Assembly (NCBI RefSeq): GCF_030384885.1
Contig: NZ_CP128613.1
DNA from: Escherichia coli
GTDB taxonomy: Bacteria > Pseudomonadota > Gammaproteobacteria > Enterobacterales > Enterobacteriaceae
Length of the DNA stretch: 64,000 nt
Direction: 5' to 3' (one strand)
Part shown: one piece after another, positions 63,277 to 63,558 of the stretch
Layout: each line of letters opens with the position of its first letter
How positions within the stretch are numbered: the first letter of the stretch is position 1
Notes under the pieces: model-generated
Seen by the model: only the letters and a program-made list of their open reading frames with translations
What the model was told of the DNA's origin: nothing
Databases searched by the model: none
Program-made: the position numbers and the translations under genes

Positions 63277-63558
63277 TACCGTTGTCTCTCTTCCAGGTTT
63301 ACTCCTGATAGAAAGTCATCGGCATTTGACGGTAATTACTTACGACTAAAAACCTCTTTGCGTCACATTTTTACAACAATTATTGCAGAGAAGATTAATG
63401 CCATTGGATTGAAGAAAGTGAGGAATGGTTAAACTGGCTAACCCGAATGACGAAAAATTCTGGAAAACAGCACGCTATTTCGTGAAGTGATTATTTTCGT
63501 CCCTAAGGAAACCTCATAGGATGCCTGCGGGTGCCCTTACTGCCCCCCTTTTTACGCT

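Follow-up and report, generated by a model that had tools for sequence, protein, structure and literature searches.

The trg-ydcA interval of an Escherichia coli strain is very probably the scar of a hokB/mokB/sokB deletion

Organization of the trg-ydcA interval

The window, i.e., the whole stretch of 64,000 nt of E. coli DNA that was analyzed, is 100% identical to the record NZ_CP027579.1 of strain 2013C-4282, from which the RefSeq annotation was taken. The intergenic region between trg and ydcA is located at 63277-63558 and measures 282 bp, compared with 619 bp in K-12 MG1655. Its left border is formed by trg (61636-63276, minus strand), which according to the list of open reading frames and the RefSeq annotation encodes an intact methyl-accepting chemotaxis protein Trg of 546 aa. 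The right border is formed by ydcA (63559-63732, minus strand), an intact frame in the same list for a secreted/periplasmic small protein of 57 aa, which is annotated either as YdcA family protein or as hypothetical protein. The synteny is the same as that of an intact hokB locus, with trg on one side and ydcA on the other.

Upstream of trg a putative promoter was identified on the minus strand at 63316-63342. It consists of a -10-like element GCCGATGA (63316-63323), a spacer of 11 nt and a -35-like element TAAGTAAT (63335-63342). From comparison with the published sigma-28 consensus, which we take to be TAAAGTTT-N11-GCCGATAA, these promoter-like elements would be of the sigma-28 (FliA) type. 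No variation was found in the block TCATCGGCA of the -10-like element or in most of the -35-like block when two divergent Escherichia genomes were included in the alignment. The putative promoter lies outside the deletion described below and is unaffected by the loss of hokB.

Between this promoter and the remnant of the hokB promoter, a further block, TCACATTTTTACAACA (63363-63378), is invariant in both divergent Escherichia within variable surroundings. It carries no annotated feature and may be a regulatory site for trg. Within trg itself, the part coding for the ligand-binding half (62433-62936) contains about 14 clustered substitutions by which the window strain is unlike all four close relatives, both those that share the short interval and those that carry hokB; the cluster suggests a recombined trg segment. 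On the other side of ydcA, the small RNA RydC (Rfam RF00505) is found at 63903-63966 on the plus strand with a score of 80.1 bits, compared with 92.5 bits in K-12. The two RydC sequences differ by four substitutions, two of which lie in the stem, where pairing is kept via G-U wobbles.

The interval encodes no Hok-type toxin

In the preliminary description it was stated that K-12 has hokB/mokB/sokB between trg and ydcA and that 63277-63558 contains no Hok-like peptide. The statement on K-12 is correct, as its annotation places yncP, hokB, mokB and sokB at this position. The absence was borne out by tblastn, Pfam and Rfam searches, each of which was performed with K-12 as a positive control.

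For tblastn (word size 2, E≤1000), K-12 HokB and MokB, Hok(R1), HokA, HokC, HokD and HokE were used as queries. The last five were considered valid as queries because each one of them matched K-12 hokB. With these seven peptides, no match better than E=27 was obtained in the interval and none better than E=0.06 in the whole window, compared with values of 1.7e-32 to 4.8e-7 on K-12 hokB. The mok frame is likewise missing, as MokB gave no tblastn match in the interval and E=6e-39 on K-12. The HOK_GEF profile (PF01848) had no match at E≤10 in nine of the stop-to-stop frames of at least 20 aa from the interval and its surroundings, irrespective of the start codon, and K-12 HokB matched this profile with E=1.1e-23. 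A Hok-like ORF, including one with a non-ATG start, was sought in these stop-to-stop frames and not found; a cryptic Hok ORF with any start codon was rejected on the tblastn and Pfam results, both of which had controls.

In the Rfam search at E≤10, the sok/hok leader RF01794 was absent from 63000-64000, with positions 1-7 of the model alone surviving; in K-12 the same family was detected with 109.7 bits and E=9e-26. When other type I toxin or antitoxin RNAs were looked for at this threshold, RydC alone was obtained, which lies outside the interval. The Hok/Gef family is recognized by an ORF of approximately 50 aa that has a transmembrane helix at its N-terminus and matches the HOK_GEF profile; the interval has no such ORF, and it has neither the structured leader with an antisense Sok RNA nor the overlapping, coupled mok frame of a hok/sok module. 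The absence of hokB is real and no assembly artefact, since four assemblies from different sources and countries have the short allele in common.

Extent of the loss and retained parts of hokB

The window was aligned with K-12, with R32_14_1F (the closest hokB+ local haplotype), with 2017-02-2CC (the closest relative over 25 kb) and with others. Alignment to the trg-ydcA interval of K-12, which had been proposed as a check, resulted in one gap, in which hokB, mokB, sokB and yncP are missing. When K-12 coordinates were mapped onto the alignment, all four were found to be removed completely. The net loss compared with K-12 and the closer relatives is 337-339 bp, as measured from a landmark distance of 54 bp vs. 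391-393 bp.

From trg through CATAGGATGCCTGCGGGTGCC, which ends at 63535, the window is colinear with hokB+ strains. This part includes an orphan hokB upstream (promoter) region of about 75 bp (63455-63528, plus strand), which K-12 and other hokB+ strains have in identical or nearly identical form just before the hokB leader. It is followed by the heptamer GGGTGCC (63529-63535, plus strand), which according to the alignments is the very start of the hokB mRNA leader; positions 1-7 of RF01794 begin at this heptamer in K-12. In the full-length hokB mRNA, this 5′ element is complementary to the 3′ end (GGCACCC in K-12). The next 6 nt, CTTACT (63536-63541), form the deletion junction and match neither side. 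Beyond the junction, the 3′ end of the hokB transcription unit is retained as GCCCCCCTTTTT (GCCCCCC plus a T-run; 63542-63553, plus strand), which matches natural hokB 3′-end alleles, and after it ACGCTTCAG runs into the ydcA stop codon.

At the 3′ end, GCCCCCCTTTTTACGC of the window looks unlike GGCACCCCTTTTACAC of K-12. However, this very point is polymorphic among hokB+ strains, with CATGGCCCCCCTTTTTTACGC in Z1323HEC0462, CATGGCCCCCCTTTTACAC in A30 and CATGGCACCCCTTTTTACGC in 042, and the window sequence is therefore an ordinary hokB 3′ end. On the 5′ side, alignment of 63455-63535 to a duplicated hokB unit in strain E69 gave 76-78% for the upstream part of either copy, and thus this piece belongs to the hokB module. 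The interval keeps sequence of the hokB module itself (63455-63535 with GGGTGCC, and the 3′ end) and not just its flanks. A match of the retained piece to promoters of paralogous hok genes was also considered and rejected: a junction query of 105 nt matched at most 2 places per E. coli genome (median 1), and therefore no homology at the DNA level to the hokA/C/D/E promoters was detected.

The empty state is derived from an occupied one

At the same site between ydcA and trg, hokB is present in E69 and SCPM-O-B-8794, two divergent Escherichia genomes that represent other species-level clusters and whose trg is 85 and 81% identical to that of the window, respectively, at the DNA level. These outgroups are the two Escherichia loci among the matches listed from a YdcA scan of genome contigs, the others being distant YdcA homologues. 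The matches listed include neither E. albertii nor E. fergusonii nor the E. coli representative, and the outgroup sample is therefore small. Within E. coli, the flanks of the gap share polymorphisms with the hokB+ strain R32_14_1F, which has the same sequence as the window at 63266-63513 and 63573-63923. Both this closest local haplotype and the closest 25-kb relative, 2017-02-2CC, are hokB+. Because divergent Escherichia have hokB at the same site and the flanks match a hokB+ haplotype, the empty state is a derived deletion, nested, on the basis of local haplotypes and outgroups, within hokB+ lineages, and the occupied state is ancestral. The interval is very probably a scar left by a secondary deletion, in which the type I toxin-antitoxin module hokB/mokB/sokB was lost along with the small overlapping gene yncP. 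It had previously been called "probably the empty site," which is true in that the site is unoccupied now, but not in the sense of a site that was never occupied, since the promoter region and both transcript ends remain.

The opposite polarity, in which hokB was inserted later in the main lineage of E. coli and the pre-insertion state is preserved in the window, would be in line with the origin of the window strain in a rarely sampled group (five genomes above 98% over 25 kb, with the bulk at 96.5%). The gap also nearly coincides with the hokB transcription unit, as might be expected for the insertion of a cassette. However, a site that had never been occupied would not be expected to contain the hokB promoter region and both ends of the transcript, and hokB is carried here both by more divergent Escherichia genomes and by the nearest relatives 2017-02-2CC and R32_14_1F, so that this polarity is very improbable. 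Even less credit can be given to the idea that the interval still encodes a cryptic toxin, with a non-ATG start or from another type I family. It could be based on a short hydrophobic frame on the minus strand (63428-63366, PFLTFFNPMALIFSAIIVVKM, with an internal MALIFSAIIVVKM), but this frame lies in sequence common to hokB+ strains, no similarity to Hok/Gef was found in the frames tested, and no Rfam family of type I antitoxins or toxin leaders was detected at E≤10. As a toxin, the frame was rejected for lack of conservation, since K-12 has ATA in place of its ATG and this region is variable and poorly conserved in the divergent Escherichia.

Frequency and history of the short allele

Among 5,426 complete E. 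coli genomes, the one-piece short allele was identified in four (2013C-4282, MFDS1022581, MFDS1019527 and N96). The deleted segment of 340 bp is present at least in part in 5,409 of these genomes and to 80% or more in 5,084. These frequencies agree with the short allele being derived. The scar occurs with two junction strings, GGGTGCCTGTACTGCCCCCC and GGGTGCCCTTACTGCCCCCC. The three carriers other than the window strain have GGGTGCCTGTACTGCCCCCC at the junction; they keep 9 nt of the leader, GGGTGCCTG, and have TGTACT where the window has CTTACT. The differences between the window strain and these carriers are TG>CT at 63536-63537 and G>A at 63572.

Over about 0.9 kb (62937-63816), the window and the three other carriers are identical save three positions, and outside this block up to 20-50 substitutions per kb are found. 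A clonal origin of the four carriers was rejected on account of this difference of about 2% per kb beyond the block around the scar. Since a block of about 0.9 kb is shared by strains that are about 2% divergent elsewhere, the history of the scar includes recombination and is not that of a simple clonal event; the scar is either old or was moved by homologous recombination. Over 25 kb (39001-64000), only five complete genomes exceed 98% identity to the window, compared with about 96.5% for the bulk of E. coli. The lineage of the window strain is thus thinly sampled and may be deep-branching or cryptic.

Possible course of the deletion

For the manner in which the DNA was broken and rejoined, we infer the following course. 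The ancestral order would have been trg, hokB promoter, hokB/mokB mRNA with the antisense sokB, yncP and ydcA, and a single event would have removed about 337 bp from it. The left break lies 7-9 nt into the hokB transcript and the right break about 12 nt before the T-run at its 3′ end, with a filler of 4-6 nt at the junction between the two breaks. Such a loss is tolerated because toxin and antisense antitoxin are removed together. The deletion left ydcA, trg and the promoter of trg intact.

A simple deletion with two breakpoints is not a full description of the event, because the 4-6 nt at the junction match neither side. Also the change of TG>CT right at the junction, which sets the window strain apart from the three other carriers of the scar, does not speak for such a simple deletion. 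No IS element was found at the breakpoints. Direct repeats were rejected as the mechanism, since the two sides share at most the dinucleotide TG and the filler of 4-6 nt lies between them.

The 5′ end GGGTGCCTGAGA and the 3′ end TCTCATGGCACCC of the hokB unit form an inverted repeat, in which 12 of 13 positions are complementary with one bulge and the arms are about 340 bp apart. Following the literature on R1 hok, these ends presumably correspond to the 5′ and 3′ pairing elements (tac/fbi) of hok mRNAs. The deletion might therefore have been directed by structure, in that the complementary hokB ends paired in single-stranded DNA and the loop between them was removed, which would refine the deletion reading rather than compete with it. 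In favour of such an excision, the two breakpoints are located within the complementary elements, at the inner, loop-proximal end of each, and both arms are mostly retained. However, this is one event (n=1) for which coincidence is possible, and the viable deletions are already limited by selection to those that lose hokB, be it alone or along with sokB, and spare the trg promoter and ydcA. Moreover, a simple bypass of a hairpin would not be expected to leave filler nucleotides, and a second independent scar of this type was not seen among the complete genomes. A structure-directed excision is therefore regarded as rather unlikely. If it were true, hok modules would have a built-in route to their own removal that is precise at the level of the transcript, and scars of this kind would be expected again at other hok loci. 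The position of the breakpoints inside both complementary transcript ends is mildly interesting and could hint at a structure-driven deletion, which a single case cannot support.

Properties of the remnant

A scan with the sigma-70 consensus identified no strong site in the retained hokB promoter region (63455-63528), whose promoter activity is putative. The orphan hokB promoter may still fire and would now give an antisense transcript into ydcA. A scan with a terminator consensus flagged 63529-63545, which comprises the remnant hairpin and the T-run. The remnant ends GGGTGCC and GCCCCCC are now adjacent and bracket nothing, and they pair only weakly (-5.1 kcal/mol, z=-0.47) and no better than shuffled sequences do; on this ground, a function of the scar as a terminator hairpin was rejected. 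As the remnants are without coding capacity or stable structure, the interval is functionally just the upstream region of trg and the downstream region of ydcA. No evidence for a new function was seen in the interval.

Comparison with known hok loci and their decay

The K-12 locus hokB/mokB/sokB (b4428/b1420/b4429) with yncP has the same position between trg and ydcA as the scar, and has in common with it the promoter region, the first 7-9 nt and the last approximately 12 nt of the transcript. In contrast to K-12, the window has neither the toxin ORF nor the mok frame; the antisense gene sokB and its promoter are missing as well, as are the leader structure and yncP.

Other inactivated states of the locus, which also speak for the deletion reading, were identified as well. 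In 99COLEC, IS150 is inserted between the hokB promoter and hokB. Nissle 1917 has a larger deletion of B2 type, which extends from within trg to within hokB and leaves both genes without their N-terminal part. For K-12, hokA, hokC and hokE were reportedly described by Pedersen and Gerdes in 1999 as inactivated by IS insertions, point mutations and rearrangements. The naturally inactivated chromosomal hok loci have decay of the hok module in common with the window. Compared with these loci, the module in the window is gone almost exactly at the limits of the transcript, with no IS element and with undamaged neighbours.

In laboratory-evolved E. coli B, IS-mediated deletions around hokB/mokB form a mutational hotspot (PMC8569431). 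As for the window allele, the loss of hokB is tolerated and recurrent there. However, the deletions in E. coli B are large, are mediated by IS elements and take cybB, ydcA, trg and others with them (PMC8569431), whereas that of the window comprises 337 bp, involves no IS element and spares the neighbouring genes. According to a preprint, the presence of chromosomal hok loci is variable, islet duplications occur and the loci are often inactive, and earlier work is cited there that suggested the chromosomal hok/Sok systems to be inactive (bioRxiv 10.1101/2025.08.07.668861).

The scar represents ordinary decay and adds one more state to those of an already known type I toxin-antitoxin locus of the chromosome. 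Its importance is small, in that another natural route of decay of a chromosomal hok/sok locus is documented. It also provides a clean natural null allele of hokB/sokB/yncP in a wild lineage, which could serve as a comparison strain for HokB-dependent persistence.

In the 'E. coli' strain E69 (CP089930.1; L012:3181-4106), the hokB module is tandemly duplicated, with a unit of 431 bp and a period of about 496 bp. Both copies contain an intact HokB ORF, and the repeat unit includes the promoter piece that is kept in the window. The duplication fits the pattern reported for hok genes, in which islets arise by local duplication.

Other features of the window

A second remnant of a toxin-antitoxin system was found at 48015-48251 (minus strand), where hicB is annotated as a pseudogene without its N-terminus and with no hicA annotated beside it. 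The same pseudogene state is annotated in the four related strains that were examined. A variable island at 17668-28617 contains, by annotation, an ISAs1 transposase (ydcC), ltrA (19862-21184) for the reverse transcriptase of a group II intron, an RHS core protein (22222-26442) and VgrG (26509-28617). Between yncL and patD, the window strain and its closest relatives have a gene for a CatB-related O-acetyltransferase (39894-40703, minus strand), which is missing at that position in R32_14_1F.
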